64,000 bases of DNA. Source: Candidatus Dadabacteria bacterium (GTDB taxonomy: Bacteria; Desulfobacterota_D; UBA1144; Nemesobacterales; Nemesobacteraceae). The DNA lies in NCBI GenBank assembly GCA_022822065.1, contig JAJECI010000008.1:117254-181253 (forward strand), given 5' to 3'. Below the pieces are notes generated by a model. That model worked only from the letters and a program-made list of their open reading frames with translations. It had not been told where the DNA came from and did not search any database. Made by a program: the position numbers and the translations under genes. Shown here in pieces: positions 7,747 to 46,124 of this stretch (position 1 is its first letter; each line of letters opens with the position of its first letter).

Positions 7747-9507
7747 GTGGCTACCGATACTTCTGCTTCGCGATCAGGCGTTCGCTACGAACCTAACGAC
7801 AAGCCGCCGACGCTACTCGTAGCCGGGCTAGGCTTACAGCTAGCCATTCTCACCATAGCGGGGATCGCCATCACGCCGGTCATCGTGATCAAGGCCGCCG
7901 GCGAATCCGAGACTTACATGTTGTGGGCGGTATTCGCGTCAGTCGTGATTAGCGGGGTCAGCACTATACTGCAGGCCGTCAGAGTTGGTCGAATCGGCGC
8001 AGGATACGTTCTCCTGATGGGCACCTCCGGCGCATTCATCGCAATCTGCATCACCGCGATCGCGAAAGGCGGACCCGCCATGTTGGCGACGCTCGTCATT
8101 ATCTCGTCTTTGTTCCAATTTGCCCTGGCGAGACGCCTTTCCCTGTTTCGGCGGATACTCACCCCCACGGTCGCGGGCACGGTAATCATGCTGATTTCCG
8201 TCACCGTGATGCCGATAATTTTCGATCTCCTGGACAAGGTTAAGGACACCGCAGACCCTCAGGCCGCTCCCCTCAGCGCGCTTGTGACCGTGCTTGTCAT
8301 TACAGCCATCGCCATCAAGGGTACCGGCGTATTCCGACTTTGGGCTCCCGTAGCGGGCATCATCGCAGGGTGTATTGTTGGCGGCTTCTTCGGAATTTAT
8401 GACACGACGCGCATTTCCGAATCCGCCTGGATCGGGTTTCCGCAAGGAGGCTGGCCCGGCTTTGATCTGAGTTTCGGACCGACGTTCTGGACGCTCCTGC
8501 CCGGGTTCATCTTTGTCACCATGATTGGCGCGATCGAGACAATTGGCGACGCCGTGGCAATTCAGCGCATTTCGTGGCGACGGCCGCGAGCCGTAGACTT
8601 TCGCTCCGTTCAGGGAGCCGTGACTGCCGACGGGGTGGGTAACCTACTGTCCGGGCTCGCCGGCACAGTTCCAAACACGACGTACTCGTCCAGCGTATCG
8701 GTAACGGAACTTACCGGAGTGGGGGCTCGGGGAATCGGAATTGCCGCGGGCACCATATTTATCATCTTGGCATGCTTCCCCAAGGCGCTCAGCGCAATTC
8801 TCGCGATTCCGAATCCGGTGGCCGCGGGGTACCTGGCCATCCTGGTGGCTATACTGTTTGTGGTTGGAATGAAGGTTGTCGTCCAAGACGGAATCGACTA
8901 CCGCAAGGGCATGATTGCGGGAGTTTCATTCTGGGTGGGTGTCGGCTTTCAGCACGGCGCAATCTTCCCTGAGTATTTCGCGGAATTTGCCGGCGGCCTG
9001 CTGCAGAACGGCATGACGGCAGGCGGTCTCACCGCCCTGCTCCTTACGCTTTTTGTCGAAGTCACTGAACCTCGGCGCAGACGCATAAATCTTCCGTTTC
9101 ACATTACGACATTGCCGAAAATCCGGGAGTTTCTGCAATCGTTTGCTTCCCACAGCGGCTGGGGGGAGGCGATGGCCAACCGCCTTGACGCCGCCAGTGA
9201 AGAAACCCTGCTCACGCTGCTTGAGCGAAAAACGACGTCAGGCGAGGAAGAACCTTCACGGCGATTGCACATTATTGCGCACAAGGAAGGCGACGAGGCC
9301 GTGCTTGAATTCATAGCGTCAGCCACCGAAGAAAATCTCCAAGACCGGATCGCGCTGCTAGGCGAGCGAGCGTCGGAAGCCTCGACTGAACAAGAGGTGT
9401 CTCTGCGACTGTTGCGACACATCGCCTCGTCGGTACAACATCAGCAATATCACGACACGGATATCCTCACTATCCGCGTGAAGGCACCGGCTCCTACGTC
9501 CGATTGA
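7747..9507 (+). CDS. NCS2 (xanthine/uracil permease)-family transporter with a ~150-aa C-terminal cytoplasmic extension
   Basis: Polytopic protein. The GLGLQLAILTIAG block corresponds to the NCS2 GLQHvLvmyaG motif, here with Leu in place of His. The following VISGVSTILQA block is also NCS2-like. The hydrophilic tail (aa ~440-586) has no recognisable motif. Confidence 0.6.
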   Translation: MATDTSASRSGVRYEPNDKPPTLLVAGLGLQLAILTIAGIAITPVIVIKAAGESETYMLWAVFASVVISGVSTILQAVRVGRIGAGYVLLMGTSGAFIAICITAIAKGGPAMLATLVIISSLFQFALARRLSLFRRILTPTVAGTVIMLISVTVMPIIFDLLDKVKDTADPQAAPLSALVTVLVITAIAIKGTGVFRLWAPVAGIIAGCIVGGFFGIYDTTRISESAWIGFPQGGWPGFDLSFGPTFWTLLPGFIFVTMIGAIETIGDAVAIQRISWRRPRAVDFRSVQGAVTADGVGNLLSGLAGTVPNTTYSSSVSVTELTGVGARGIGIAAGTIFIILACFPKALSAILAIPNPVAAGYLAILVAILFVVGMKVVVQDGIDYRKGMIAGVSFWVGVGFQHGAIFPEYFAEFAGGLLQNGMTAGGLTALLLTLFVEVTEPRRRRINLPFHITTLPKIREFLQSFASHSGWGEAMANRLDAASEETLLTLLERKTTSGEEEPSRRLHIIAHKEGDEAVLEFIASATEENLQDRIALLGERASEASTEQEVSLRLLRHIASSVQHQQYHDTDILTIRVKAPAPTSD

Positions 9508-9778
9508 ACGGTTAAAGGAGGAGGCACGCACGGGCCCGCTACCCGCGGATTGATTGTCAGCCTCACTCACACGCCCATTTTCCCCTGCAAAGTCTCGAGC
9601 ACCGCCAGCTTAAAAGCTTCATCTCCGCTCGCCCGCAGGATCCCGCCCAAAGCTGAAAAACCGCCGATTTTCCCGACCCCTGACGGGTTCCAACCGGGAT
9701 ATTTGATTTAATCGAGAACTTGTTTATACTAGGCTGTTTTTATTTGACCACAACAGGCATCCGAGGAGCGAAGAACCA

Positions 9779-11662
9779 ATGGCTACCACACTGCACATAA
9801 GAGACAACATCGAGCAATCCTACGGGGACGTGTACACGCCGGAGGCGCTAGAGGCCCTTGAATTCATGACCCGCTTCAACGGCGAGCAGAAGGCCCTCAT
9901 GGAAAAAAGGACCCGGAGAAGAAAAAGGCGCTACGAATCCAAGGAAAGAATAACCTTTCTTGATCCCAACTCCCTCATCCCGCGCACCAATATCAAGGTC
10001 CAGGACGCGAGGGACGGAAAATTCGAGGGCCCCGAGATCCCCCATGACCTAAAAAGACAGTGGATACAGGGAACGGGCCCCGCGGCAAAACCTAATTCTC
10101 CGGTTGAAAACAGCATAAGAAACGTCGCCTACGCCCTTCTCTCGGGCGCTGACGGGTGGATGTTCGACGGCGAGGACGCGCTGGGGCAGATCTCGACCAT
10201 GTCCCTTGACAACCAGCGCAACCTCAAGCTCGCGATCGCAAGGGACGAGGTGTTCATGAAAACCGCGGAAGTCGTGGCAGGGCAGATGAACAGGTGGGGA
10301 CAGGAGTTTTTCGGACATGACATAATCGAGGACTGGGAAAAGCAGCTTGACTTCACCACCGTGATTTTCAGGGCGAGGGGACTTCACCTGGACGACCGCC
10401 ACATACGGGACGCAGACGGCGTCGCGCTTTCGGCTTCCGTGGTCGATATGACGCTTTTTGTCGTTAACAACTACAGGGAACTCGCCAAGAGAAACTCATC
10501 CATAGTCCTTTACCTGCCGAAGATACAGACCGCCGAGGAAGCCGCGCTCTGGAACGAGATGCTCACCGCCCTTGAGGGCCACATCGGACTTCCCGAAGGC
10601 ACGATAAAGGTATACGTGCTGATAGAGCAGCTTGAGGAAACGTTCCAGCTCATGGAGATAAGGGCGGTTTTGGGCAAGCACTTCGCCGGGTTTAACACCG
10701 GCAGGTGGGATTACATAAACAGCGTCTCTGACGCCGTGGCGTGGGATGCGGATTTCGTTAACCCGAACATAGAGTCGATCACCATGACGTACGGCTACAT
10801 GAGAAACTACGAGGACCGCGTGAGAAGGGCCGTGAACACCCCGGACGTAAACGGGAACTTCGCGCTCTGGCAGGGAGGCATGGAGCCTAACATACCCGTG
10901 GGGTCGAAGGAAGGCGTTGAGAGCAGCATGGAGAAGGCCTACGCCGGGGCCGTAAGGGAGCAGCAGGAAGGAGCAAGCGGCAAATGGGTCGCCCACTGGA
11001 AGATGGTCCACATAATAAGACCCGTATGGGAAAAAGTCGGCGAGGAGAACCAGCTCGGAAGAGAGTTTCCTCCGCTTACCTATACCCAGGAAGACGCGGA
11101 CGGCCTCACACTTCTGGAACCCGCCCCGAGAACCATAAGAGGGGCGCGTAACCTGCTTAGCGTCGGACTTCAGTACGGAAACGCGTTCGGCCAGGGATTC
11201 CAGGCCGCGGCGCTCAAGCCCGCCGATTTCTTCGGAAACGACGACATCCTCTACCTTATGGAGGACGCCGCTACCGGGGAGATAAGGCTCAGCATACTCT
11301 GGGAGTGGATCCACAAGGGAGCGGAACTAACCGAGGATGACCCCGAGACGGGGCTTAAGGCCGGGGACACGTTCACCGCCGAGGTCTTCGAGAGGCTTCT
11401 TGAGGAAGAATACGAAAAGCTCCAGGCGGCAAGCGACAGGGACGTCCATGACATCTCAAAGCCCACCACCCTTCCGATAGCGAAACAGATAGTGAGAGCC
11501 TACGTGCTTGACGACGTCAAGGTGCCGTGGTACATAGACCTGCTCAACATCAACCTTAACAACCACGACCACGACGTGGCCTCGCAGAGAATCGAACTCT
11601 ACATGACGGAGTTCGCGGGCAACGACAGGAGAATCACCGAGAACCTCGATTTCGTAATCTAG
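9779..11662 (+). CDS. aceB: malate synthase A
   Basis: Blocks [33 protein letters not shown] and [21 protein letters not shown] align with E. coli AceB motifs ([42 protein letters not shown]). Confidence 0.9.
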
Positions 11663-14422: not shown

Positions 14423-15367
14423 TCACTCAGTATGTTGAGATTGTATTCTTGAGGTTAATCTATTTTTTCTCCGGCTTTTTGATGGCCACCGTAATATTCC
14501 ATCAAGCTCTTCAAGTAATAGCGGTTCCCCATAACCAACATCGTAAGGCTGAATTTCACCTGCAGGTTTCAAGCTTTCATCAAACCAGAGGATAGAAAGA
14601 CATTGATTCCATTCTTTTATAAAGATTGCTTCTTCACACAGCATGTCGTAATTTCCGACACCATTGTTGAACCAAATCTCAGTAGGAATCTCTTCATTGT
14701 ATTGCTCAGTCTCAGATCGGTTTTTGATCAGGTGAAAAGCTACGCTGTTTTGAGGAACCGGTACACCGATGTCAATCCATCCCTTAAGTTCGCGTAGAGA
14801 CTTTGAACTGGAAACATAGCGAATTTGACCTTCTTCAATAAGAACAAAGGAACAGAGCCCTTCACAGTTGGCGGCGAACCTGGAACCCGTAGAGTGTATA
14901 GAGGCTCTATAACGTTTTGACAGCTCCTTTATCGTATCGAGACATATATCAACATCCTCAATATCTTTCTTGAAAAAATCATATGGTAAGAGGCATTCCG
15001 CTGCAAAAATATCGCATAAAACCTCTTCCTCGGGACGCTGTCTGTAACTCATTAGATCGGTTGTTTTTATAGAACCATCTTGATGCTTTGAGGGTAGTTC
15101 CAGAATGATATGGCCAATTTCGTGTAGAATAGTAAACCGCTGTCTTTCCTCCGTATGTTTCCCGTTAACAGTGATAATGTTCCTTCCGTTTAAGAAAAAA
15201 GTTTGACCCGATTCTTCATCGTCAAGATCATGGCAAACTTCAATTTCAGCCCCAGCAACCGCAGAGTAAAGCTTAAGGTTAACAGGCACGGAATTTATTT
15301 CAGATTCCCTAATGAAATCGCGTGCCTTTAAAACGACTTCAAGTTCTTTCGCTTTGTGCTTACCCAT
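14423..15367 (-). CDS. CapP-like ImmA/IrrE-family Zn-metallopeptidase (CBASS regulator)
   Basis: HEIGH motif (FTILHEIGHIIL) in a DUF955/ImmA-like core, 314 aa. It overlaps the upstream HTH gene by 8 nt and is divergent from the CBASS operon. Confidence 0.75.
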   Translation of the reverse strand: MGKHKAKELEVVLKARDFIRESEINSVPVNLKLYSAVAGAEIEVCHDLDDEESGQTFFLNGRNIITVNGKHTEERQRFTILHEIGHIILELPSKHQDGSIKTTDLMSYRQRPEEEVLCDIFAAECLLPYDFFKKDIEDVDICLDTIKELSKRYRASIHSTGSRFAANCEGLCSFVLIEEGQIRYVSSSKSLRELKGWIDIGVPVPQNSVAFHLIKNRSETEQYNEEIPTEIWFNNGVGNYDMLCEEAIFIKEWNQCLSILWFDESLKPAGEIQPYDVGYGEPLLLEELDGILRWPSKSRRKNRLTSRIQSQHTE

Positions 15368-15737
15368 TCTTCATAAACTCTTCCAACCGTTCAGCCCACT
15401 TGCGCCATTCATCCTTAGTTTTAGGTCGTCTTCCCCTGAAGCTCATAGATGATAAAGACTCGAAAAGTTCTATTGGGCGTTCTTCGTCCTCAAGAAAAAC
15501 CTCAATAAGCTGGTCACTGACTGTTTGTCCGACAAGGAGGTGTAATAGGTGTGCCCTGCGCCTATCAAGCTTGAGGGTATTAATGAGGGAATCGACGGTT
15601 TGTTCAGACGGAGAGGTTCTTTCTTCCTTTTCCAAGCGATGAATATAAGTATAGTGGATCCCGCATAATTTCCCGAGTTCTCGAAGAGTTAAACCACGTC
15701 TCTTGCGAAACTTTCTCAAAGCGTAACCAAAAGACAT
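15360..15737 (-). CDS. CapH-like XRE-family HTH transcriptional repressor (CBASS regulator)
   Basis: N-terminal HTH LRKFRKRRGLTLRELGKLCGIHYTYIHRLEKEER (XRE/Cro-type), 125 aa. First gene of a two-gene operon with the ImmA peptidase. Confidence 0.75.
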   Translation of the reverse strand: MSFGYALRKFRKRRGLTLRELGKLCGIHYTYIHRLEKEERTSPSEQTVDSLINTLKLDRRRAHLLHLLVGQTVSDQLIEVFLEDEERPIELFESLSSMSFRGRRPKTKDEWRKWAERLEEFMKNG

Positions 15738-15759
15738 TCTATATTTCTTAAAAAAATTC

Positions 15760-15788
15760 TTGACAAAAAAAGAAAGATTGATTATTCT
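15760..15788 (+). promoter_or_regulatory. candidate sigma70 promoter for the CBASS operon (TTGACA-17 nt-TATTCT) in the capH/CBASS divergent intergenic region
   Basis: TTGACA at 15760-15765, 17-nt spacer, TATTCT at 15783-15788. Downstream are two CAACATT-containing repeats (acagacaacattcta and tctgtcaacattata) that could be CapH operator half-sites. Confidence 0.4.
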
Positions 15789-15973
15789 GTTGCCTGTACA
15801 GACAACATTCTATGCTAATTCACTAAAACAAAATAAAATTTAGCTCGATGAACATGTATAAAGCGTAGCTTGTTTCTGTCAACATTATAATAGAAACTGC
15901 AGATTTTCTCAAGCGTTTTTTACCGTTGGTCTTAAAAAATAGGGCTGAGAGAGAAAAAGAATTCGACGAAGTT

Positions 15974-16969
15974 ATGAGAAAGGATACTGAAATAGCGAAA
16001 AAACGAATCCTATGTATTGACGGAGGGGGAGTCCTCGGCACTTTTCCTGCAGCATTTCTCGCTGAACTGGAAAAACACCTTGATCACCCTATTGGAAAGT
16101 ATTTCGACCTAATTGCGGGAAGTTCCACAGGAGGAATTATTGCACTTGGTCTCAGCATGGGAATTTCCGCATCGCAACTGTTGAATTTCTACGAAAACAG
16201 AAGTTATGAGGTATTTGGTAAAAATAATAGACCGTTTCTGAGTTTTTTCCTCAGAAAAATCCGAGCAGTTAAATGGTGCTTTCTAAGAAAGTATAACTCT
16301 GAACCTCTCCGAACTGTTCTTTATGATGTGTTTGGGGAAAAACGTATAGGTGAAGCGAAAACCCGGTTACTTATTCCAGCTTGGAATCCGGTGGCTAATT
16401 CCGTCTACATCTATAAAACAGCACATCATCCCCGTCTAAAAACAGATTATAAATCAAGCGCGGTTGATGTAGCTATGGCGACATCAGCAGCTCCTTCCTA
16501 TTTCAAGCAACACGTTACACAGCATGGTGTTGTCCTCATTGACGGCGGCATATGGGCAAACAACCCCGTAGCGATTGCTGTTGTTGAGGCCATCTCCCTG
16601 CTGAACTGGCCAAGAGAGTCACTTCGCATCTTAAGCCTAGGGTGTCTGCAGGAGGCATACAATATACCAAAACACGCTGGCCTCGGAATGCTTAACTCAA
16701 AAATTATTAACTTATTCATGGACGGACAGTCTCAAGGGGCTATGGGTATCGCAAAGCTGTTAACGGGTCATGAACACGAACGTACCGCTATATACAGGGT
16801 GAATCAGACGGTTCCATATAATACCTACAAAATGGACGACACAAAGACCATACAAGACTTAAAAGGACTCGGCCATTCCGAGGGGCGAAGTTGGCAACCC
16901 AACCTTGAGGCTATATTTTTCGACAAACCGGCAGAAGTTTTCAAACCATATTATAAGTTGGAGGATTAA
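15974..16969 (+). CDS. patatin-like phospholipase (CBASS effector, CapV/CapE-like)
   Basis: Oxyanion-hole motif ILCIDGGGVLG, nucleophile motif GSSTGG (GxSxG) and catalytic DGG in IDGGIWANNP. Start is taken at ATG 15974. The ORF track starts at an in-frame TTG at 15926, which is less likely. Confidence 0.85.
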   Translation: MRKDTEIAKKRILCIDGGGVLGTFPAAFLAELEKHLDHPIGKYFDLIAGSSTGGIIALGLSMGISASQLLNFYENRSYEVFGKNNRPFLSFFLRKIRAVKWCFLRKYNSEPLRTVLYDVFGEKRIGEAKTRLLIPAWNPVANSVYIYKTAHHPRLKTDYKSSAVDVAMATSAAPSYFKQHVTQHGVVLIDGGIWANNPVAIAVVEAISLLNWPRESLRILSLGCLQEAYNIPKHAGLGMLNSKIINLFMDGQSQGAMGIAKLLTGHEHERTAIYRVNQTVPYNTYKMDDTKTIQDLKGLGHSEGRSWQPNLEAIFFDKPAEVFKPYYKLED

Positions 16970-16971
16970 GA

Positions 16972-18171
16972 ATGAGAATTGATGAAGCTAGATATTCTAA
17001 CTTTTTAGACGAAGTTGCAGGAAACCTAGATATTTCCCCGAGCAAGTACAGAGATGCTGTCGACCGCTACCAAGCTGTTGCGAAATGGCTCGAAGGCGGA
17101 GATTACCCCGGACCTTCTGATTCTGGGTTAGACATCTATCCACAAGGCTCATTTCGTTTAGGTACAGTCACGAGACCAATAAGGAACAGTATTGAAGCAG
17201 ATTATGACATTGATCTTGTGTGCGAAGTCCCCTTGCTAAAAGAGTGGGCCAAGCCTGAGTACGTAAAGCAGTTAGTCGGCGACAGACTAAAAGAACACGA
17301 CATGTATAGGAGAATGCTAGATGAAGAAGGTAGGCGATGCTGGACGCTAATATATTCTGAGCAAGACAATATTGGCTTCCACCTGGATGTTCTGCCGTCA
17401 GTCCCCTATTTGGGAGGCTACCTAAACACGGCGATTGCGATAACGGACAAAGATCTTTCCCTTTACAGGTGGTCAATAAGCGATCCTAAGGGTTACGCTC
17501 AATGGTTTGATGATAGAAACATGTCCGCATTTAACCTGGTATCTGCTGAACAGAAGAGACTTATTCAAAATCAAGCCCCGGAAATATACGCAAGAATCGA
17601 AGACGTACCTAATCAATTAGTTCGTACTCCCCTTCAACGTGCAATTCAAATTATGAAACGTCACCGTGACATTAAGTTCAATGACACAAGATCTATTGAG
17701 TATGCCCCGATTTCAATAATCATTACGACTCTCTCCGCATATTTCTATCGAAACGAACCAGATGTCTACTCCGCTCTGAAGAATATTGTAGGTAGTTTAA
17801 ATGCACATTCTGCCCTATTTGAAAATCGGGTTCTTGATCCTGCTCTCAAATCAATTACTCCCATAAAAAGGACCTCTGATGGCAAATGGCATATAGGCAA
17901 TCCTGTTAATCCAGAGGAAAACTTTGCAGACAGGTGGCATGAGAATAACCATGCCAGAGCAAAAGCATTCTTTCAGTGGTTGGACTCTCTACAAAAAGAC
18001 CTTATTAACATACTTAATGAAAACAATCGAGACCTAGCAAAAAGCACCCTTATCTCAGCCCTAGGCAGTGTCCCAGTATCGCAAAATCTGGAACTGATAA
18101 TCCCTCCTAAAGTAATCGAAAGCCCCCCGAAGATTCATATTTCTAGGCCAGCGCAACCGTGGAAAGACTAG
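16972..18171 (+). CDS. cGAS/DncV-like nucleotidyltransferase (CD-NTase, SMODS domain) of CBASS
   Basis: Pol-beta-type NTase motif QGSFRLGT...DYDIDLV (GS...[DE]h[DE]h), with a third acidic residue in GFHLDVLPS. GGAGG Shine-Dalgarno 7 nt upstream. It lies between a patatin effector and an E2-like gene and is translationally coupled to the next gene (TAG-a-ATG). Confidence 0.8.
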   Translation: MRIDEARYSNFLDEVAGNLDISPSKYRDAVDRYQAVAKWLEGGDYPGPSDSGLDIYPQGSFRLGTVTRPIRNSIEADYDIDLVCEVPLLKEWAKPEYVKQLVGDRLKEHDMYRRMLDEEGRRCWTLIYSEQDNIGFHLDVLPSVPYLGGYLNTAIAITDKDLSLYRWSISDPKGYAQWFDDRNMSAFNLVSAEQKRLIQNQAPEIYARIEDVPNQLVRTPLQRAIQIMKRHRDIKFNDTRSIEYAPISIIITTLSAYFYRNEPDVYSALKNIVGSLNAHSALFENRVLDPALKSITPIKRTSDGKWHIGNPVNPEENFADRWHENNHARAKAFFQWLDSLQKDLINILNENNRDLAKSTLISALGSVPVSQNLELIIPPKVIESPPKIHISRPAQPWKD

Positions 18172-18172
18172 A

Positions 18173-18901
18173 ATGAAAGGCAAAATCAGAAAAGAGATTT
18201 GCGAGTTGAAGCAAACTTACAAATGCCTCACAGACATATCTCATCGAAAACAGGAAACAATAATAAAAGGCCCCCTTTCATTTGAAGCGTCTTTTGACGA
18301 GTTCCCGGTGATTGTTGAGTGCTTTGATATTGAACTAGCTATTCCTGACTCTTACCCAGAAGTCCTTCCAATTGTACGAGAAACAGGTGGAAGAATCGAC
18401 CAAGATTATGAACACCTGAATCAGGATGGAACCCTTTGTCTTACTACACCGATTGAGAAACGCCTGCTTTTTCTAGAGCAAAAATCTTTACTCGGATTCG
18501 TAAATCTTCTTGTTATCCCATATTTATATGGTTACTCCTACTGGAAAAAGTATGGTCATCACCCTTTTGGTGAGCGTGCACACGGAGTTGAGGGAATTAT
18601 TCAGTACTATCAGGATGAGTTAGGTTTAAGCGGTAATGTACATATACTAGCAATGCTCGCTTTTCTTTTCCAGTTCGGTTATCGTGGCCATCTTCTCTGT
18701 CCCTGCGGAAGCGGATTTAAAGTTCGGGAATGTCACAGCGAAACTTTATTAAAGCTTCATAAATATCACTCTAATCACACCTTAAGAAATGATTTCTTAT
18801 ATCTACTTTCTCTTTGCTTAGAAAAAAAAGAAGAGTTCTCTGAAGAGCTTTCAAAACAGATAGATCGAATACTAAAAAAAGAAAAATTAAGAAAAAAGTA
18901 A
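18173..18901 (+). CDS. Cap2-like E2 (UBC-fold) protein without E1 or JAB partner, with a C-terminal SEC-C-type zinc-binding motif
   Basis: IELAIPDSYPEVLPIVRE resembles the E2 block (FP.DYPFKPPKV.F). HLNQDGTLCLTTP resembles the HPN-x(n)-G-ICL active-site Cys region. LLCPCGSGFKVRECH is a SEC-C-like CPCGSG.K...CH metal knuckle. Confidence 0.65.
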   Translation: MKGKIRKEICELKQTYKCLTDISHRKQETIIKGPLSFEASFDEFPVIVECFDIELAIPDSYPEVLPIVRETGGRIDQDYEHLNQDGTLCLTTPIEKRLLFLEQKSLLGFVNLLVIPYLYGYSYWKKYGHHPFGERAHGVEGIIQYYQDELGLSGNVHILAMLAFLFQFGYRGHLLCPCGSGFKVRECHSETLLKLHKYHSNHTLRNDFLYLLSLCLEKKEEFSEELSKQIDRILKKEKLRKK

Positions 18902-22614: not shown

Positions 22615-23706
22615 TCACGCGCCCGCTTTTACCCGGCCTGAGTCAACGAGAAACGAGTGGAATTCTCCCCGACGGGGTATCTCGTTCTTATCGGTCGAGG
22701 TGACGAATACCTGCCCGGTGAATTCCGAGAGAGTTTTGAAAAGAAAGCTCCTGCGTTTTATGTCGAGTTCGCTCGTTATGTCGTCGAGAAGAAGTATGGG
22801 GTTAGTCCCCGTGTGTTCCTTAAAAAGCCTTATCTCGGAGGCCTTAAGCGCCAGAACCAGGTTTTTCGACTGTCCCTGCGAGGCAAAGCGCGAAGCGTCC
22901 TGTCCGTTAAGCAGAAAACCGACCCTGTCCCTGTGGGGACCCACCGTCGTGTGGCCCCTTTTTCTGTCGGAAGGAAAGTTCTTGGAAAGCGCCTCCCTTA
23001 TCGCCTCCGCGAGATCCGCTCCTCGCTCAAAAGAAAACCCGTAGCTCACGCGCGCCGACGTGTCCGATTCTCCGTGCTCCCCGTAAACCTCGGCGAGCTT
23101 GCGGTTAAAGCTTTTTATCATCTCGATGCGCCTGTCCACGATGTCGGCCCCGATTCTGGCTATCTGCTCGTCCCAGAGTTCCACGGAAAGCAAAGACACC
23201 TTTTCCTTTAATCCCAGCATGTGGTTTCTCTGGCTAACGGCCCTCTGGTAGTCGCGAAGCTGCTTTATGTGGGCCGGGTGGATGGCGCTTACGACGGAAT
23301 CAAGGTAATTCCTCCTCGCCTGAAGACCTCCCTTCACTATCTCTATGTCCGAGGGAAGAAACAAAACGACCTTGAACCGGCCGAAGTGCTGGCTTATGCT
23401 CCGCACGGTCTTTGAGTTAAGCCGCGTGTGGCGGCCCTCTTTTTTTACGGTTATGTGCACTTCGTTAAGACCGTTTGCGGAAAGAATCTCCCCTTTAACA
23501 AGAGAGGCTTCGCAGCCGAAGCGCACGAGCTCGGAATTTTTCGCGCCCGAAAAAGGCCGCATCCCGCAGACAAGATAGACGGCCTCGAGAAGGTTGGTCT
23601 TCCCCTGGGCGTTTCGTCCGTGGATAACGTTCAGTCCCGTATAGAACGGAAGGGAGAGGCTCTCGTAATTTCTGTAGTTCCTAAGGCTCAGATGTTTAAG
23701 CTGCAC
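22615..23706 (-). CDS. recF: DNA replication and repair protein RecF
   Basis: N-terminus MQLKHLSLRNYRNYESLSL..GLNVIHGRNAQGKTNLLEAV (Walker A), SMC-like ABC ATPase with Walker B LLLDDITSELD. Size is 363 aa. Confidence 0.9.
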   Translation of the reverse strand: MQLKHLSLRNYRNYESLSLPFYTGLNVIHGRNAQGKTNLLEAVYLVCGMRPFSGAKNSELVRFGCEASLVKGEILSANGLNEVHITVKKEGRHTRLNSKTVRSISQHFGRFKVVLFLPSDIEIVKGGLQARRNYLDSVVSAIHPAHIKQLRDYQRAVSQRNHMLGLKEKVSLLSVELWDEQIARIGADIVDRRIEMIKSFNRKLAEVYGEHGESDTSARVSYGFSFERGADLAEAIREALSKNFPSDRKRGHTTVGPHRDRVGFLLNGQDASRFASQGQSKNLVLALKASEIRLFKEHTGTNPILLLDDITSELDIKRRSFLFKTLSEFTGQVFVTSTDKNEIPRRGEFHSFLVDSGRVKAGA

Positions 23707-31338: not shown

Positions 31339-32055
31339 ATGATACCGATTAGAAGCACAATAAAAACCGAAATCGTCCCCTATGTGAATTACGCGCTTCT
31401 CGCCGCAAACTTGGCGGTTTTCGCGTATACCCTTTCTCTGACGGGGGGGACGCTTGAGATGTTCTACCAGACACACGGTATTGTGCCCAGCAAGATAACC
31501 GCCCTTGAAGCCTACGGATTCCTTGGCAGAACGGCAAAATATTTCAGTTCCATGTTCATCCATGAAAACTGGCTTCACCTGGCCGGGAACCTGGTTTTTC
31601 TCTACATATTCGGAAACGCTATCGAGGACCTGCTGGGGCACGCCAGATACCTGCTTTTCTACCTCGTGTGCGGACTGGTAGCCGTATTCATCCATGTGGC
31701 CTTAAACTCCCACTCCGCAATTCCGGTAATAGGAGCAAGCGGGGCGGTCTCCGGAGTCCTGGGCGCGTATATGCTCTTTTTCCCAAGATCAAGGATCCTT
31801 ACGCTCCTCATAGTTCTGGTGTTTGTCTACTTCGTGCGCATAAGGGCTTATCTTTTCATAATTTTCTGGTTTAGCGTTCAGTTTCTGACCGGAATCGGCT
31901 ATATTGGTGACGCGGGAACCGAGGGCCTGTGGGCGCACATGTCGGGATTCGCCTGCGGAGCCATAGCCGGAGGGGGATTTCTTTACACGCGGGGATGGCG
32001 AAGTAAAAAATACAAATCCGGTTACGGACCGGGGTGGTACGGACAAAATGACTAG
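31339..32055 (+). CDS. rhomboid-family intramembrane serine protease
   Basis: Six-TM core with the catalytic Ser motif GASGAVSG and the catalytic His in AHMSGF. Size is 238 aa. Confidence 0.8.
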   Translation: MIPIRSTIKTEIVPYVNYALLAANLAVFAYTLSLTGGTLEMFYQTHGIVPSKITALEAYGFLGRTAKYFSSMFIHENWLHLAGNLVFLYIFGNAIEDLLGHARYLLFYLVCGLVAVFIHVALNSHSAIPVIGASGAVSGVLGAYMLFFPRSRILTLLIVLVFVYFVRIRAYLFIIFWFSVQFLTGIGYIGDAGTEGLWAHMSGFACGAIAGGGFLYTRGWRSKKYKSGYGPGWYGQND

Positions 32056-35370: not shown

Positions 35371-36822
35371 ATGAAATTCAGGATACACGAAATGTTATTG
35401 AGTCTGTTTTTTATACTGGCGTTTTGTTTTTCGTTCAGCACTGAAGCGTCGGCCCATGAGTACACCGATTCCGACGGAAACGTTTATACACACAGTGAAG
35501 ACATCAACATAAGCGCGGCGGACGTCGACCCTACAAATGAAGCTCAAATGAAGAAGTTCGTCCGTCATCTGGCCAAGCATACGGACCTCATTAATAGCCA
35601 GGACAAGCTCAACGAAACGAAACTGGAGAAATCAAGGGAGATCGTAATATTCGGAAGACGAGCCAGGGAAAGAGCCGGAGAAGGAGAAACCCCTAACGTC
35701 CTCAATCACGGTGATGTCTATAGAATCCTGACCTTAAACTTAATAGATGCTGTAGGGAATCACGGGCTGTATCCAGATCTCTACGGCCGCAAATATGATT
35801 CTTCCCAAGATCCGCTGAAAACTTTACTCGGCGATGACGTCCCCGAATTCTCGGACACCGTTGTTCCGCTGTGCAAAAGGTATGGCGAAGAGAACAGGGT
35901 GGCCTGCGCGGTCAGACAAGAGATCCCCGCGGGGCCGGTAACGACCATGGCGGGCTTTCATCACGCGGAAGACGATCCCGTTGTGCTAGCTCCCGACTGT
36001 TCTGATTTCATTCCTCCGGTTACGGCCGAAGAGGTCGAGAACGAAACAGATCTCGATAAGAAGAGAGAACTTCTTAGACAGTACGTAAAAGGCGTTATTA
36101 AGATCACCAATAAGATATTTGTAGATGCGGCGAAGATGTTTTTTGCAGATACGGGGGCGGAAGCACCCCTGACAGAACTACAACTAATAAGAAGACTACA
36201 AGCAGAAGCTGGTGCAAGGTTCTTCCCAAAAGCGCCTTGTTTTAGGTCACCTGATTTACGTCACGGTTCCATATACTCTTTCATTATGGACCCGATACGT
36301 GGAGTTTCATTTATGAACCCGAACGATCATAACCTAAACGGTCTAAGCGTTTCGCTAAATGACCCGGACCCGGTTCCGTATGACGATCAAGGGAATATTG
36401 AACCAAATGTCCTGGTCGCTTTTCAGAGGGTACTGACAAACACTCCACCACCAGATCCCCCCAACCCGAATAGCATAAAACATGGAGACTCAGGCTTCGT
36501 CACATATCACTGGGCCCATCCCACAAAAACAGAGCTTAACATCCCTGACTATCTCGACCGCGACGTGGTTCCCGGCAGAGCGATCAAGGAAAGCTATATC
36601 GAGGTAGCGGACCTATTCGATGGCGCTGATCCTCCGCCGCTTCCGTTGCCTGTCCCCTTCGTGTTTGGTTCCGGATTCTACCCGCCAGAAATGATGGCGG
36701 AAGAAGGCGATGACGGGTGTTCCATCGCCGCAACCGGCAATACGTCTCAAAGCGCTTTGCTTAATCTTTTCCTGATAGCATCCGTTTTATTCTCAGCCGT
36801 TATCCTGAAAAAGCGCGTTTAG
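35371..36822 (+). CDS. secreted acidic protein, family member 1, with a C-terminal Cys-containing sorting-like tail
   Basis: Signal peptide MKFRIHEMLLSLFFILAFCFSFSTEASA|HE with an AGGAG Shine-Dalgarno. C-terminus GDDGCSIAATGNTSQSALLNLFLIASVLFSAVILKKRV, which is motif, then TM helix, then basic residues. Closely paralogous to 37012..38409. Confidence 0.6.
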   Translation: MKFRIHEMLLSLFFILAFCFSFSTEASAHEYTDSDGNVYTHSEDINISAADVDPTNEAQMKKFVRHLAKHTDLINSQDKLNETKLEKSREIVIFGRRARERAGEGETPNVLNHGDVYRILTLNLIDAVGNHGLYPDLYGRKYDSSQDPLKTLLGDDVPEFSDTVVPLCKRYGEENRVACAVRQEIPAGPVTTMAGFHHAEDDPVVLAPDCSDFIPPVTAEEVENETDLDKKRELLRQYVKGVIKITNKIFVDAAKMFFADTGAEAPLTELQLIRRLQAEAGARFFPKAPCFRSPDLRHGSIYSFIMDPIRGVSFMNPNDHNLNGLSVSLNDPDPVPYDDQGNIEPNVLVAFQRVLTNTPPPDPPNPNSIKHGDSGFVTYHWAHPTKTELNIPDYLDRDVVPGRAIKESYIEVADLFDGADPPPLPLPVPFVFGSGFYPPEMMAEEGDDGCSIAATGNTSQSALLNLFLIASVLFSAVILKKRV

Positions 36823-37188
36823 GCGGAGGAAAATATTTTTTCGCGACTAATCCAGAGAGGAAAGGTTTGAGTAATTCTATTCACCCGAGCCGTATGGAGC
36901 TTTCACAGCCTGCGATGTTCGGTTGACGTCGGTAATCCTGTCAACCTAGAAAAATAATGTAGCAAGTAACTAGTTATAGGGGTAATTACCAAATATTGGA
37001 GGTAATATCAGGTGAAGTTCAGAGCACATGGAATGTTGTTGAGTTTGTTTTTTATGCTGGCGTTTTGTTTTTAGTTAAGCACTGAATCGTCGGCCCAAGA
37101 GTACACCGATTCCGACGGAAATATTTATACACACAGTGAAGACATCAACATAAGCGCGGCGGACGTCGATCCTGCGGATGAAGCTCAA

Positions 37189-38409
37189 ATGAAAAAATTC
37201 GTCCGTCATCTGGCCAAGCATATAGACCTCATTATTAACCAGGACAAGCTCGACGAAGCGAAACTGGAGAGATCAAGGGAGGTCATAATATTTGAAGGAC
37301 AAGCCAGAGAAAGAGCCGGAGAAGGGGAAGACCCTAATGTGCTCAATCACGGAGATGTTTACACTACAACCACTCTTAACCTTAACAGGGGGGTTATAAC
37401 GAATCACGGGCTGTATCCAGATCTCTACGGCCGCAAATATGATTCTTCCCAAGATCCGCTGAAAACTTTGCTCGGCGATAACGTCCCCGAATTCTCGGAC
37501 AACGTTGATCCGCAGTGCGTAACGTATGACAACGGAAACAGGGTGGCCTGCTCAGTCAGACAACTGATCCCCGCGGGGCCGATAACAACCATGGCGGGTT
37601 TTCATCACGCGGAAGACGATCCTGTTGTGCAAACCCCCGACTGTTCTGATTTCACTTCTCCGGTTACGGCCGAAGAGGTCGAGAACGAGACAGATCTCGA
37701 TATGAAAAGAGAACTTCTTAAACAATTCGTAAAAGGCATTGCCGAGATCACTAGAAAGGTATTTTTAGCTACGGCGTTGGAAGTGGCATCCAGCGTACCC
37801 CCAGAGGATGTAATACCAGCATCCGTTGCAAGGGTATACGAAGAAGTGCCTTGCTTTAGGTCACCTGGGTTACGTTCTGACTCCATATATTCTTTCGTCA
37901 TGGATCCGATACGTGGAGTTGGGTTCCTGAACGCGAACGATTTTACCCTTAACGGTCTAAGCGTTTCGTTAAATGACCCGGACCCGATCCCGTATGATGA
38001 TCAAGGAAATATTGAACCAAATGTCCTGGTTGCTTTTCAGAGGGCACTGACAAATACTCCGCCACCAGATCCCCCCAACCTGGATAGCATAAAAAATGGG
38101 GACTCCGGCTTCGTCAGATATCATTGGGACGACCCAAGAACTGAAGAGGATAACGTCGAGGGCTTTTTGGCAAAGGGCGTGGTTCCCGGCAGGTCGGTCA
38201 AGGAAAGCTACATTGAGGTAGTGAATTTGGTCGAGGGTCTTCCGTCCCCGCCTGTCCTCTTCGTGTTTGGTTCCGGATTCTATCCGGAAGAAGGCGATGA
38301 CGGGTGTTCCATCGCCGCGACCGGCAATGCGTCTCAAAGCGCTTTGCTTAATCTGTTTCTGATAGCATCCGTTTTATTCTCGGCCGTTTTCCTGAGAAAG
38401 CGCGTTTAG
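37189..38409 (+). CDS. secreted acidic protein, family member 2 (tandem paralogue); the upstream signal-peptide region 37012-37188 is in frame but interrupted by TAG at 37072-37074, so this is a probable pseudogene or phase-off allele
   Basis: Roughly 75-80% identical to the 35371 gene over its length. Same C-terminal tail (GDDGCSIAATGNASQSALLNLFLIASVLFSAVFLRKRV). GTG start at 37012 with a GGAGG Shine-Dalgarno. Codon 21 is TAG where the paralogue has TCG. Confidence 0.5.
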   Translation: MKKFVRHLAKHIDLIINQDKLDEAKLERSREVIIFEGQARERAGEGEDPNVLNHGDVYTTTTLNLNRGVITNHGLYPDLYGRKYDSSQDPLKTLLGDNVPEFSDNVDPQCVTYDNGNRVACSVRQLIPAGPITTMAGFHHAEDDPVVQTPDCSDFTSPVTAEEVENETDLDMKRELLKQFVKGIAEITRKVFLATALEVASSVPPEDVIPASVARVYEEVPCFRSPGLRSDSIYSFVMDPIRGVGFLNANDFTLNGLSVSLNDPDPIPYDDQGNIEPNVLVAFQRALTNTPPPDPPNLDSIKNGDSGFVRYHWDDPRTEEDNVEGFLAKGVVPGRSVKESYIEVVNLVEGLPSPPVLFVFGSGFYPEEGDDGCSIAATGNASQSALLNLFLIASVLFSAVFLRKRV

Positions 38410-40949: not shown

Positions 40950-42911
40950 CTAGGCCTCCCCTCGCGCGGAATACTCGTGAACCTCGTCAATCAGCCTCAG
41001 AACATTGTCAACCGGCGTCTGCGGCAGTACTCCGTGACCCAGGTTGAATATGTGCCCAGGCCTTCCTCCCACTCTGTCAAGTATCTTCCTCGCCTCTCCC
41101 ACGACGTGAGAGGAGGTTGAGAGCATTGAAACCGGATCAAGATTCCCCTGGACCGCAAGAGAACTCCCGGCCCTCTGCCAGCCGTCAAGAATGTCGACCC
41201 TCCAGTCAAGACCGATAACTCCAGCTCCGGTCTTTCCCATGAGTTCGAGCAGGGAACCGGTTCCGGTTCCGAACAGTATTACCGGAACTTCCGGAGGAAG
41301 GGCCGAGATAAGTTTCTTCACGTGCGGGAAGACGAATCTTTCGTAATCCGCCGGGGAAAGACAACCCACCCAGCTGTCGAAAATCTGCACGGCGTCGGCC
41401 CCCGCGCCCACCTGGGCGCAGAGATAATCCGAGATGCTCTCGGTAAGAATCTCCATGAGCCTCTCCCACAGGGAAGGATCACCGTACATCAGTTTTTTCG
41501 TGTTTACGTAGTTTTTCGAACCGCTCCCCTCAACCGCGTAGGAAGCCACGGTAAAAGGTGCGCCGCTAAAACCAATAAGCGAAACTTCGGGGGCAAGCGC
41601 CTTTCTCGTGATACGAAGAGCCTCGTAGACGAAATCCATGCTCTCGGGATCAAAGTCCCTCAGGGCCTCTATGCGCTTTCGGGTCCTAAGAGGCTTGGCT
41701 ATCACGGGACCGTCGACGCTTGAATACTCAAGGGAAAGCCCCAGGGGCTCCAGTATGAGCAGTATGTCCGAGAAAATGATGGCCGCGTCCACGCCGAAGC
41801 GGTCAACCACCATCAGCGTGATTTCCGAGGCCATATCAGGGGTCTTGCAAAACTCCTTGAAAGAAACGCGGGAGCGGGCCTCCCTGTATTCCCGAAGAAA
41901 TCTGCCCGCCTGCCGCATGAGCCAGACGGGAGTATAATCGGCTTTCTCAAGGCGACACGCCTTCATAAACGCCCCTTCGGAAGTGACTTCCCTCCTTTGG
42001 TCCTGCGCGCCGTCCCCTGACCAGACCATCTGCGTGCGGTTCCAGTTCCGGGTATCCACACCGTTTTTAAATGCCGTTCTTTTCTTGGCGAGGAGCGTCG
42101 CCGACCTTCTGGCCACCTCTCTCACCAGGTTTCCCATTTTCGGGCTGTCGGGCTCATAGTCAACGGATATGCCGTTTTCCCTGAGCGTCTCCGTGGTGGT
42201 CGGCCCGATCGAGCATACAAGCGCCTTTTTCACTCCCTCGATGAATTCGGCGACACGCTCCTCTTTGCCCGCCACCTCAAAAAGGTTTGATACCTGCCGG
42301 GAACTTGTGAACAGGAGGCAGTCCTCCTCCCCCTCGGATACGGATATTACGGCGTCGCGCAGGGGACCCAGATCCTCCGGAAGCGCCCACCTGTAGATGG
42401 GAATTCTTCTCACGTCGGCCCCTCTTTTCTCAAGAGAAGCGAGAAACTCCTCGTTTGAAACCCCGTATTCCTGAACGTACACGACTAGGTTCTCAAGCGA
42501 CATGTCCCTCTGGTCAAAAGTGGAAAGTATGTCCCTCCACGTGTTCGGTTCGGAAACGGTTATATCCGGTTTCATCCCGAGTTTGCGAAGGACCGCCACG
42601 GGTTTAGGACCTCTGGCAAGAATCGTCGTTCCGCGCAGGGCTTCGACATATTCCTTTTCTCCCGATTCCGCAATTACGATGTCGGAGAGTATTCGCGTTC
42701 CTACCCCGGTCATGAGAACAAGAAGGTCGATTTTGCCCGAGAAGAGATCATCGGCAAACCCGGCAACGTAAGGACTTTTAAGATCGGGGACTTCCCTCAT
42801 CGAGGGCGCGACCCTGGGCACGCCGCCGTGATAGGAGATGAGTTTTTTCATCTCCTCGCAACGGCGACTTTCAAAAGACGTTACCTTAAGCCCGTTAAAA
42901 CCCTGTTTCAT
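40950..42911 (-). CDS. hemE: fused uroporphyrinogen-III synthase (HemD-like N-domain) and uroporphyrinogen decarboxylase (HemE C-domain)
   Basis: The C-terminal ~340 aa carry the UroD signature PVWLMRQAGR and the rest of HemE. The N-terminal ~300 aa have the HemD (HEM4) two-lobed pattern. Total 653 aa. Confidence 0.8.
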   Translation of the reverse strand: MKQGFNGLKVTSFESRRCEEMKKLISYHGGVPRVAPSMREVPDLKSPYVAGFADDLFSGKIDLLVLMTGVGTRILSDIVIAESGEKEYVEALRGTTILARGPKPVAVLRKLGMKPDITVSEPNTWRDILSTFDQRDMSLENLVVYVQEYGVSNEEFLASLEKRGADVRRIPIYRWALPEDLGPLRDAVISVSEGEEDCLLFTSSRQVSNLFEVAGKEERVAEFIEGVKKALVCSIGPTTTETLRENGISVDYEPDSPKMGNLVREVARRSATLLAKKRTAFKNGVDTRNWNRTQMVWSGDGAQDQRREVTSEGAFMKACRLEKADYTPVWLMRQAGRFLREYREARSRVSFKEFCKTPDMASEITLMVVDRFGVDAAIIFSDILLILEPLGLSLEYSSVDGPVIAKPLRTRKRIEALRDFDPESMDFVYEALRITRKALAPEVSLIGFSGAPFTVASYAVEGSGSKNYVNTKKLMYGDPSLWERLMEILTESISDYLCAQVGAGADAVQIFDSWVGCLSPADYERFVFPHVKKLISALPPEVPVILFGTGTGSLLELMGKTGAGVIGLDWRVDILDGWQRAGSSLAVQGNLDPVSMLSTSSHVVGEARKILDRVGGRPGHIFNLGHGVLPQTPVDNVLRLIDEVHEYSARGEA

Positions 42912-44609: not shown

Positions 44610-46124
44610 GTGTTGCTCGTCGCTCCACGGGCACAGGCGCAGAGAACCATCTGGTCCGCCACGCTGACCGTACAGGATTTTGGTCATAACTTTGGGCTAG
44701 GTTGCTCTGATAGAAGATCGGGCAAGGAATGCAGCAATAACCTCACGGATAATGATTTCACACATGGAGGCACGGATTATCTGGTTAAAGTGGTCTCTAC
44801 TAGAACAGTGGGGGTGAGCCAGCAGCAGGATTTAAGCTTTCAGCTCGACAAAGCAATTCCTCTGGGACTGACGTTGCATGTGGGCAGCAGTTCCTTTACC
44901 GTCGCCAGTGCAACTCTTAGCGATCCCGATGCCCTGGGCGTCAACAAGCTCGCAGTATGGACCAACACCGGCCTGTCTTCTTGGAGCGAGAACCAAAAGG
45001 TTTCGCTAAGGCTGGTGGATCCGTCCGCCGCGCCCCCGCCTCCACCTCCTCCGCCTCCGCCCGTCATTGAGTCCCCAGAAGGGGTTAGCCACAGCGGGAA
45101 CCCTAATGACGGTTTCTCCCTTACTCCCCTTGGAGAAGGAGGAAGCATTGTCTACAGAAAAAGAACTATAGATATTCCCGTCACCCGGGATGAATGTACA
45201 TCTCCCGGAAATCCCGCGCTGATCATATCCCGCAGCACACTTGACCGCGTGAGGGAAATTACCTTTGAACTCTCGGAAACTTCTCCCCAGGACTCTCCCC
45301 CCGGGTTTCGCATGGAGGGCTGCGTTGCGGAAATAGATCCGGGAATAAGACTCGGACAAAGAGAGACAGTGGCTGTATGTCTTCCTCCTGCTGATGTTAA
45401 AGGAGAAGCCTATGTTCACCGTTACGACGAAGAATGGAAGATTCTTCCCTCACGATCAGAAACCGTTAACGGAGAGGAGCTTGTCTGCGGGGATACAGAC
45501 TCGTTCTCCCTGTTCGGAGCTTTCCTGCCAGTGATTGAGTCAGCTGAAGGGGTTACCCACAGTGAAGACAAAGAGTATGGTTTCTCCCTTACTCCCCTTG
45601 GAGAGGGAGGAAGCATTGTTTACGGGGAGAAGACTATAGATCTTTCTGTTACAGGGGATGTGGGTTCTTCGGGAGATCCCGCAGTGATAGTCTCCCGCGA
45701 TGTTCTTGACCGCGTAGAGGAGATAACCTTCGAGCTCTCGGAAGTCTCTCCCCATGATCCTCCTCCGGGGTTTTATCTAGAGGGTTTCTCTGCGGAAGTG
45801 GATCTGGGAGTCACGCTTGAGCCAGGAGAGACAGTGAGTGTGTGTCTTCCGTCTTCCGGGGGAGATATTTACCGTTACAGTGAAGAACTAGGGGAGTGGG
45901 AAGTTCTTGAGTCATCGCGGTCGGAGACTGTTAACGGAGAGGAAGTTGTCTGCGGGGAGGTGGACGCAGTTTCCCTGACCGGAGTGTTTGTCGAGGACAC
46001 GGGAGGATGCGTCATTGCCGCAGTGAGCGGGGAAGGAGTCCCGTGGCGGGGAGCGGTGTTTAACCTTCTCCTCATCATGTCCGTGCTGCTGCTTATTCCG
46101 GGGATGAGAAAGCCTGGGGTATGA
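44610..46124 (+). CDS. proline-rich, internally duplicated cell-surface protein with a C-terminal Cys-containing sorting-like tail; the 5' end is disrupted (the true start is probably ATG 44495, which is in frame but separated by TAG 44543-44545)
   Basis: The ORF begins at the h-region of a signal peptide (..LLLVSLVLLVAPRAQA|QRTIW). Internal features are a PPPPPPPPPP linker and two ~155-aa tandem repeat units. C-terminus GGCVIAAVSGEGVPWRGAVFNLLLIMSVLLLIPGMRKPGV. Confidence 0.55.
   Translation: MLLVAPRAQAQRTIWSATLTVQDFGHNFGLGCSDRRSGKECSNNLTDNDFTHGGTDYLVKVVSTRTVGVSQQQDLSFQLDKAIPLGLTLHVGSSSFTVASATLSDPDALGVNKLAVWTNTGLSSWSENQKVSLRLVDPSAAPPPPPPPPPPVIESPEGVSHSGNPNDGFSLTPLGEGGSIVYRKRTIDIPVTRDECTSPGNPALIISRSTLDRVREITFELSETSPQDSPPGFRMEGCVAEIDPGIRLGQRETVAVCLPPADVKGEAYVHRYDEEWKILPSRSETVNGEELVCGDTDSFSLFGAFLPVIESAEGVTHSEDKEYGFSLTPLGEGGSIVYGEKTIDLSVTGDVGSSGDPAVIVSRDVLDRVEEITFELSEVSPHDPPPGFYLEGFSAEVDLGVTLEPGETVSVCLPSSGGDIYRYSEELGEWEVLESSRSETVNGEEVVCGEVDAVSLTGVFVEDTGGCVIAAVSGEGVPWRGAVFNLLLIMSVLLLIPGMRKPGV
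45063..45995 (+). repeat. two tandem ~465-bp intragenic repeat units (~55-60% aa identity) inside the surface-protein gene
   Basis: Unit 1 begins VIESPEGVSHSGNPNDGFSLTPLGEGGSIVY (45063). Unit 2 begins VIESAEGVTHSEDKEYGFSLTPLGEGGSIVY (45531). Both end ...SETVNGEE.VCG..D..SL.G.F. Confidence 0.6.

Follow-up and report, generated by a model that had tools for sequence, protein, structure and literature searches.

Within a 64,000-nucleotide stretch of a Candidatus Dadabacteria genome (assembly GCA_022822065.1, contig JAJECI010000008.1, positions 117,254 to 181,253 of the forward strand; the window in what follows), three genes named here P1, P2 and P3 encode the same kind of C-terminal tail: a short motif with a cysteine, a polar spacer, a transmembrane (TM) helix and a basic cluster. 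The question raised by this locus is whether the tail is a protein-sorting signal and, if so, which enzyme acts on it. Candidatus Dadabacteria is a class in the Thermodesulfobacteriota, and the GC content of the window is about 52%. The reading that we favour, with moderate confidence, is that the tail is a tripartite, Cys-containing sorting signal specific to Dadabacteria, a divergent relative of MYXO-CTERM, and that it is cut by an intramembrane protease of the CPBP family.

Anatomy of the tail

P1 (35371..36822, plus strand) is an intact open reading frame (ORF) for a client protein of 483 amino acids, in which a Cache-type ectodomain lies between a signal peptide and the C-terminal tail. 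The tail starts with EEGDDG-C-S-I-A-A (36700..36732), where the invariant Cys450 is encoded by codon 36718-36720, and continues with the polar spacer TGNTSQS (36733..36753), the TM helix ALLNLFLIASVLFSAVIL (36754..36807), which includes the conserved Asn465 and Ser471, and the basic cluster KKRV (36808..36819), all on the plus strand. In the AlphaFold2 model of P1 (pLDDT 88, pTM 0.83) residues 451-460 have a pLDDT below 50 and a helix spans residues 458-482. The basic cluster is predicted to be cytoplasmic, a topology backed by the doubled homologues described below. P2 (37012..38409, plus strand) is a paralogue of P1 with 73-75% identity, and its tail (38287-38406, plus strand; Cys codon 38305-38307, TM helix 38341-38394) differs from that of P1 at four residues. 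P3 (44495..46124, plus strand) has a body made of two copies of a repeat of about 150 amino acids, to which the bodies of P1 and P2 show no relation, and ends in VEDTGG-C-V-I-A-A / VSGEGVPWRG / AVFNLLLIMSVLLLIPGM / RKPGV (45990..46121, plus strand; Cys codon 46008-46010, TM helix 46053-46106). The tripartite tail had been noted on these ORFs in an earlier, sequence-only reading of the window and is plain in the sequences; the motif given there, G-[DG]-G-C, has to be corrected, the actual residues being D-D-G-C in P1 and P2 and T-G-G-C in P3.

The likeness between the tails of the two unrelated families goes beyond chance. A hidden Markov model (HMM) built from 107 P1-family tails only recognises the tail of P3 with 22.3 bits (E=1.2e-6 among the 319 ORFs of the window), the next ORF scoring 3.1 bits, and an HMM built from 21 P3-family tails only recognises P1 and P2 with about 18 bits (E about 2e-5). 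As each model was built without the family that it recognises, these tests are not circular. A six-frame scan of the window detected no fourth copy of the tail.

In its general form the module opens with an acidic and glycine run, followed by an invariant Cys within C-[AS]-[IV]-A; after a polar spacer come a TM helix, in which an Asn and a Ser are conserved, and a basic end. The Cys is present in all 107 P1-family tails of the commonest length (40 residues), where it is followed by A or S at position +1, I or V at +2 and A at +3. The same C-[AS]-[IV]-A pattern is found across 234 diverse tails, 198 of which have a single Cys, and the distance from the Cys to the helix Asn in diverse tails has a mode of 14 residues. 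The helix of the P1 family has the consensus LLNLFLIASVLFS.VFLR[KR]R, and N22, L25, S28 and L30 of the tail are nearly invariant, the P3 tail included. Among the best 120 of the 156 relatives of P1, fragmentary entries aside, the tail is retained in all but P0076, in which the Cys is replaced by Tyr, and it persists where identity of the body drops to 33-35%. Mean pairwise identity in the P1 family is 66% for the tail and 61% for the signal peptide, as compared to 41% for the body.

All 156 relatives of P1 are unnamed or annotated as hypothetical, and both of those deposited with an organism name are from Dadabacteria. P1 itself scores just 11.6 bits against the Cache models of Pfam (PF17200 / PF08269), and its body is assigned to the Cache domain through relatives which exceed the Pfam cutoffs, with 72 bits for dCache_2 and 54.6 bits for sCache_2, and to which P0218 can be added. 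The signal peptide of P1 (MKFRIHEMLLSLFFILAFCFSFSTEASA, 35371..35454, plus strand) ends in a cleavage-type site read from the sequence, A-S-A/H, the slash marking the position at which cleavage is predicted by the AxA rule. The h-region of this signal peptide looks like the tail helix, and the tail HMM partly aligns with residues 8-21. Throughout the P1 superfamily the mature protein is predicted to begin with a conserved His (A-x-A/H-[ED]), and further invariant residues are His 41, 131 and 198 and Cys 168, 179, 210 and 290. These invariant His and Cys residues hint at metal binding and disulfides.

Modularity and distribution of the tail

A profile of 40 positions, searched exhaustively against 1.84e9 (1.84 billion) cluster representatives, matched the tails of 151 clusters at 50% identity with E<=1e-3, and of 59 with E<=1e-10. 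The tail is strictly a terminal element in most of them, 237 of 258 domain matches finishing fewer than 15 residues short of the C-terminus. A single superfamily of Cache-domain proteins accounts for about 200 of the carriers, and several of its members are above the dCache_2 or sCache_2 cutoffs. The remaining bodies are of different kinds and include arrays of leucine-rich repeats (LRR; P0192, P0235, P0246, P0212), a protein with eight FN3 domains (P0241), Calx-beta plus PKD proteins (P0233, P0217, P0195), SWM repeats (P0262), the P3 repeat, and a family of 357-423 amino acids matching no Pfam model. Single-linkage clustering of the carrier bodies merged all of them, and it was Louvain clustering plus Pfam which split the Cache superfamily from the rest. 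The non-Cache bodies are typical cargo of sorting systems. For the family of 357-423 amino acids we considered a solute-binding protein of the SBP_bac_3 type, a guess for which Pfam gave no confirmation. The P3 family comprises 35 matches, both of those with an organism name being from Dadabacteria; the tail is kept across this family while the N-terminal modules vary (LRR, Calx-beta, SWM repeat).

In order to define the distribution, one genome per species was scanned for 185,579 species with two tail patterns. All 62 confirmed tail loci are located in 26 metagenome-assembled genomes (MAGs) of Dadabacteria, one of which is deposited as 'uncultured Spirochaetia'. The search for additional tail ORFs that the sequence-only reading had proposed yields from at least 1 to at least 13 per genome, values obtained with a local HMM on 20-kb samples and to be read as lower bounds. 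The chromosome OZ240231.1 bears three types of client, which are P1-like, LRR and Calx-beta proteins. P1 has a signal peptide, as have intact homologues. The tail is not confined to paralogues, as shown by the unrelated bodies and the 26 genomes, and it acts as a modular, lineage-wide C-terminal element with several copies per genome, in line with the original proposal of a candidate sorting signal. It shares with the general class of tripartite C-terminal signals both the layout, with motif, TM helix and basic end at the extreme C-terminus, and the occurrence on several non-homologous secreted proteins of one genome (at least 13 ORFs in one case). That it represents a Dadabacteria-specific sorting signal appears well supported on these sequence grounds. 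In the literature no paper tying Dadabacteria to CTERM signals was present among the top matches.

The orientation of the tail in the membrane can be read from a series of doubled proteins. Several genomes carry fusions of two Cache genes into one ORF of about 880 amino acids, which encodes, in this order, an ectodomain, a tail, a basic loop (WKNRSKEKQTTRKKK), another signal peptide (…AVSTAGA/HE), a second ectodomain and a second tail. Such a layout is intelligible only if the tail helix crosses the membrane from outside to inside and leaves the basic cluster in the cytoplasm. The doubled Cache proteins are encoded at L030:7499-10129, L041:7481-10126, L043:8723-11443 and, three in tandem in one genome, at L037:1999-4626, 4716-7262 and 7484-10129. 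They may be polyproteins that signal peptidase and the sorting enzyme together cleave and, having two ectodomains and two tails, they offer a natural test of whether such a signal functions at an internal position.

Known signals, the candidate enzyme and competing explanations

The sequence-only reading had taken the invariant Cys as a distinction from known signals. However, MYXO-, JDVT-, Synerg- and CGP-CTERM each have an invariant Cys, and each is paired with a CPBP/Rce1-like 'myxosortase' (Haft, bioRxiv 10.1101/2023.06.07.544157). The Cys therefore places the Dadabacteria tail in this class rather than apart from it. For a MYXO-CTERM protein, cleavage by MrtX is proven and depends on the Cys (Guo, Haft and Wall 2025, PMC11980579). 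In NCBIfam release 20.0 no CTERM model matched the window tails, even at E<=10, which leaves the tail, as anticipated in the sequence-only reading, outside the existing models.

When 36 diverse tails were compared to the models, MYXO-CTERM (TIGR03901.2) was the sole recurrent match, a weak one (5/36, best E 0.019), and JDVT-CTERM was weakly matched by 2/36. The features in common with MYXO-CTERM, which is the nearest HMM, are the tripartite tail, the Cys after a Gly-rich run (invariant in the P1 family apart from the one Tyr variant mentioned above), the TM helix and the basic end; shared with the system as a whole (MrtX, MrtC, MrtP) are the many unrelated clients per genome and, on the favoured reading, a housekeeping enzyme unlinked to them. 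The window tails do not reach the MYXO-CTERM cutoff of 20 bits, and the Dadabacteria loci fall outside its lineages (Myxococcota, Bradymonadales). In distinction to MYXO-CTERM, where a second Cys (GCGC) is frequent, the Dadabacteria tail usually has one Cys only, without GCGC; its C-[AS]-[IV]-A is fixed, about 7-10 residues of polar spacer precede the helix, and the helix contains the conserved Asn and Ser. A second, shorter subtype of Dadabacteria Cys-tail, GGGC-[AD]-[VL]-G..G-TM-RR, is carried by Calx-beta/LRR-like proteins (L119:580-2673; L028:80-1264; P0289) and scores 15-21.6 bits against MYXO-CTERM; the tail of L028:80-1264 has 15.2 bits, and that of L119:580-2673 has 21.6 bits when isolated and 14.9 bits within the full-length protein.

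With JDVT-CTERM/MrtJ (NF033191, NF033192) the tail shares the single invariant Cys, conserved residues within the helix and, with the candidate described below, a CPBP enzyme, but it has no DP motif nine residues past the Cys, its best E is 0.75 (cutoff of NF033191, 27 bits), and its many clients are unlinked, whereas JDVT-CTERM has one client per genome beside MrtJ. Synerg-CTERM/MrtS (TIGR04564, NF040589) is likewise a short Cys-containing tail, but shorter than that of Dadabacteria, with an invariant Pro in a Leu-rich helix and from another phylum. Its enzyme model MrtS ranks third for the candidate CPBP described below and first for the CPBP relatives adjoining S8 proteases. Neither Synerg-CTERM nor CGP-CTERM matched a window tail; the best Synerg-CTERM score elsewhere was 10.6 bits as against 22.5, and the residue at +1 is A or S, not the G-P of the archaeal CGP-CTERM. 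No PEP motif, no match to the PEP-CTERM model and no exosortase in any annotated stretch were found. From the eukaryotic side the C-[AS]-[IV]-A motif fits the Cys-aliphatic-aliphatic-X of the CaaX box, and the candidate enzyme described below belongs to the Rce1 (PF02517) family. The resemblance is offered as a lead from the sequence. A cytosolic protein carries its CaaX box in the final four residues, which must first be prenylated; the Dadabacteria motif is extracytoplasmic, with about 30 more residues after it.

GlyGly-CTERM, the substrate of rhombosortase, is also found on secreted proteins and likewise joins a Gly-rich motif to a TM helix and a basic tail, but has no Cys requirement, and its model matched none of the window tails. 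The window encodes a protein of the rhomboid family (31339..32055, plus strand), which the sequence-only reading had suggested as the possible cognate enzyme. The gene is real (PF01694, E=1e-25) and has the GASG and AH..G catalytic motifs of a bona fide member of the family, but its product scores 20 bits against the rhombosortase model TIGR03902, for which the cutoff is 84. It overlaps pfk (32048-) by 8 nt, and an opposite-strand gene of the major facilitator superfamily stands between it and P1. No rhomboid homologue was found within 10 kb of the 62 tail loci in the 26 other genomes.

A better candidate, and the best on the basis of sequence, is a myxosortase-like CPBP protein encoded on OZ240231.1, where a PF02517 gene for 201 amino acids (L068:1153-1758) is located 8 kb upstream of the Calx-beta client P0195. 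The CPBP/Rce1-like motifs EExxxR, FxxxH and HxxxN are present as EEFFFR, FAVAH and HFAAN. Its top six NCBIfam matches are all models of sorting-system CPBP (Mrt) proteins, each below cutoff: MrtP (76.1 bits), Mrt_core (NF040914; 72.7 bits, the alignment spanning positions 3-101 of a 108-position profile, cutoff 100), MrtS (60), MrtC (56.5), MrtX (41.9) and MrtJ (40.9, cutoff 75). MrtZ (36.9) comes eighth, behind a CPBP model without a link to sorting (37.7), and the other models of that kind stay below 20 bits. Besides the scores, the small size of 201 amino acids separates it from the described myxosortases. Orthologues with 85-90% identity are found in other Dadabacteria in the conserved context lipB-CPBP-(toxin-antitoxin)-nadE, and one of them carries the NCBI name 'type II CAAX endopeptidase family protein [Candidatus Dadabacteria bacterium]'. 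As the Calx-beta gene is an insertion present in L068 only, the proximity of enzyme and client at this site is incidental. In the three genomes checked, CPBP and tail proteins are carried by one chromosome, namely OZ240231.1, ptg001184c (CPBP at 1.55 Mb, tail protein P0046 at 0.81 Mb) and OY763921.1, the last linked indirectly.

In the surroundings of the tail genes themselves, no sorting-type protease recurs at the 62 loci and none was found in the window or its 10 kb flanks. Grouped into 29 clusters, the multi-pass membrane ORFs that lie up to 10 kb from the 62 loci comprise transporters and housekeeping proteins only (H+-PPase, M50, TauE, MlaE, UbiA, steroid reductase), and a regular expression for the CPBP motifs matched none of the membrane ORFs near these loci. 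Three unannotated 'membrane ORFs' near tail loci looked like antisense artefacts.

A link between this clade of CPBP proteins and Cys-containing tails appears in metagenomes. Scanning with the CPBP sequence detected relatives of 35-53% identity in the core, with MrtS and Mrt_core as best models, and in at least 11 loci (L074, L079, L080, L082-L086, L088, L089, L091; CPBP of 176-236 amino acids) the relative lies tail to tail, at 3-450 bp, with a gene for an S8 subtilisin-like protease. These proteases end in GGGGGC[SA][IV]G, about 10 polar residues, a TM helix with Pro, and RR, and neither partner reaches an NCBIfam cutoff. Such adjacency, of the JDVT/MrtJ type, ties the CPBP clade to tails with a Cys and a spacer, and the pairs look like a dedicated Cys-CTERM/myxosortase pair for which no model exists.

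On the favoured reading, the clients would be exported by Sec via the N-terminal signal peptide, and the stop-transfer helix of the tail would hold them in the inner membrane, N-out/C-in, with the basic end in the cytoplasm. The invariant Cys of C-[AS]-[IV]-A would be modified, probably lipidated. The pattern N..L.L..S.L of the helix would be read by a myxosortase-type housekeeping enzyme, a CPBP/Rce1-like glutamic intramembrane protease for which the conserved 201-amino acid gene beside lipB in Dadabacteria chromosomes is the candidate. This protease would remove the helix distal to the Cys, and the ectodomain would be left anchored at the cell envelope or surface.

Several points weigh against this scheme. 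Cleavage and lipidation of the tail are drawn from analogy, the lack of any CTERM match to the window tails counts here as well, and the Cys stands about 12 residues ahead of the helix, farther than in MYXO-CTERM. Most clients belong to the one Cache superfamily, so that part of the spread of the tail is due to common descent. As to the enzyme, the L068 CPBP stays under every curated myxosortase cutoff, the co-occurrence with tails covers three genomes and would be equal for any core gene of Dadabacteria, and no CPBP gene was found in the 84 kb formed by the window and 10 kb on either side, so that its presence in this MAG is assumed.

The alternative which survives best, though we judge it unlikely, is that the tail is a permanent, uncleaved membrane anchor whose helix makes contact with another membrane protein, such as a signal transducer that would serve the output-less Cache proteins, with the Cys in a disulfide or acylated and the tail spread by domain shuffling within the lineage. 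The predominance of a single Cache superfamily without a cytoplasmic output domain fits such an anchor, as proteins of this kind would need a membrane partner; the conserved Asn and Ser of the helix are typical of helix-helix contacts, and no enzyme gene adjoins any of the 62 tail loci. However, the adhesin-like carriers with LRR, FN3 and Calx-beta modules have no reason to share a signalling partner, the tripartite layout, invariant Cys and basic end match known cleaved signals, and a myxosortase-like CPBP is conserved in the lineage. Nor is a housekeeping sorting enzyme expected beside its clients (Haft, bioRxiv 10.1101/2023.06.07.544157).

Quite improbable in our estimation is a sorting signal processed by a different enzyme, be it exosortase-like, archaeosortase-like, a wholly new intramembrane enzyme or another CPBP paralogue. 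Room for it is given by the extent of Dadabacteria DNA inspected, about 1.3 Mb, and by the nature of the link between CPBP and clients, which consists of homology below curated cutoffs plus three co-occurrences. Against it, neither an exosortase nor a sortase came up in the stretches with Pfam annotation or among the tested multi-pass membrane ORFs, annotation covering a minority of the ORFs in the 62 loci; the tail has neither a PEP nor an LPXTG motif; and CPBP proteins are used in every Cys-containing precedent (Haft, bioRxiv 10.1101/2023.06.07.544157).

Cleavage by the rhomboid at 31339-32055, in the manner of GlyGly-CTERM/rhombosortase, is very improbable: the tail is a type-I (N-out) helix after small residues, the general kind of rhomboid substrate, and a report on Vibrio cholerae describes two rhomboid proteases which cut one shared substrate at distinct sites (PMC11389362), but against this stand the low rhombosortase score and the gene context given above, a protease needing small residues only would leave the invariant Cys unexplained, and no known Cys-containing signal uses a rhomboid (Haft, bioRxiv 10.1101/2023.06.07.544157).

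Going one step beyond the favoured reading of a CPBP-processed sorting signal, we consider the chances about even that it represents an undescribed fifth Cys-type CTERM/myxosortase system. This system would combine a signal with a CaaX-like motif, the polar spacer and the fixed Asn and Ser of the helix, a minimal CPBP of 201 amino acids and, as main clients, dozens of output-less Cache proteins, including two-in-one polyproteins with an internal signal which signal peptidase and the sorting enzyme would cleave, and it would have a sister enzyme clade paired in other uncultured bacteria with Cys-tailed S8 proteases. If the favoured reading is correct, the recently established sorting by myxosortase (CPBP) would be extended from Myxococcota, Bradymonadales, Synergistota, some Proteobacteria and Thermococcales to a lineage that is uncultured and distributed worldwide. 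Annotators would gain a new HMM, by which hundreds of 'hypothetical proteins' would become predicted envelope or surface proteins, and the unusually small myxosortase-like enzyme, together with a sharply defined motif, would be a model for the way in which CPBP proteins read Cys signals. The dominance of Cache clients suggests that the Dadabacteria envelope may show many ligand-binding modules without built-in signalling output.

Disrupted genes and other features of the window

The statement of the sequence-only reading that all three proteins have N-terminal signal peptides is correct for P1 with the gene start at 35371, and it does not apply to P2 and P3 with the starts proposed there. The start of P2 is GTG 37012, from which a signal peptide resembling that of P1 is encoded; an in-frame TAG (37072-37074) falls inside this signal peptide and interrupts the gene in the window, and position 37189, previously taken as the start, is an internal Met. 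In a sister assembly (L001) the codon is TCG in place of TAG and the gene is intact, with 465 amino acids. Over 21,452 bp the window differs from the sister assembly at four positions (C>A, C>A, G>T, T>A), all inside 26 bp at 37072-37098, where the sequence of the sister assembly is the same as in the corresponding stretch of the paralogue P1. Pseudogenisation or gene conversion could account for this, as could an assembly in which the paralogues were collapsed.

P3 starts with ATG 44495 preceded by an AGGAGG ribosome-binding site, and this start is out of frame with the body through a run of eleven C (C11, 44516-44526), the previously proposed start at 44610 lying within the signal peptide. 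A C10 instead of the C11 would restore the N-terminus MKSVNSTPPPHVNRRPSF...LLVAPRAQA. The run, which encodes Pro-Pro-Pro just past the start, is C11 in both assemblies, and as the homologues of P3 start with MK..S[TA]PPP the three prolines are retained. The C11 could be a phase-variable contingency locus of a surface protein or a homopolymer error of the assembly.

Between P2 and P3 is found a hemY-hemH-hemDE cluster which includes a single ORF of 653 amino acids (40950-42911) fusing uroporphyrinogen-III synthase (HEM4) to uroporphyrinogen decarboxylase (URO-D). A low-GC island (43-47%) at 14423-18901, and also 22615-23706, contains an operon for a cyclic oligonucleotide-based antiphage signalling system (CBASS), composed of a CapP-like M78 peptidase, a patatin phospholipase effector, a CD-NTase cyclase and an E2-only Cap2-like protein, with a mad3-like AAA ATPase nearby.

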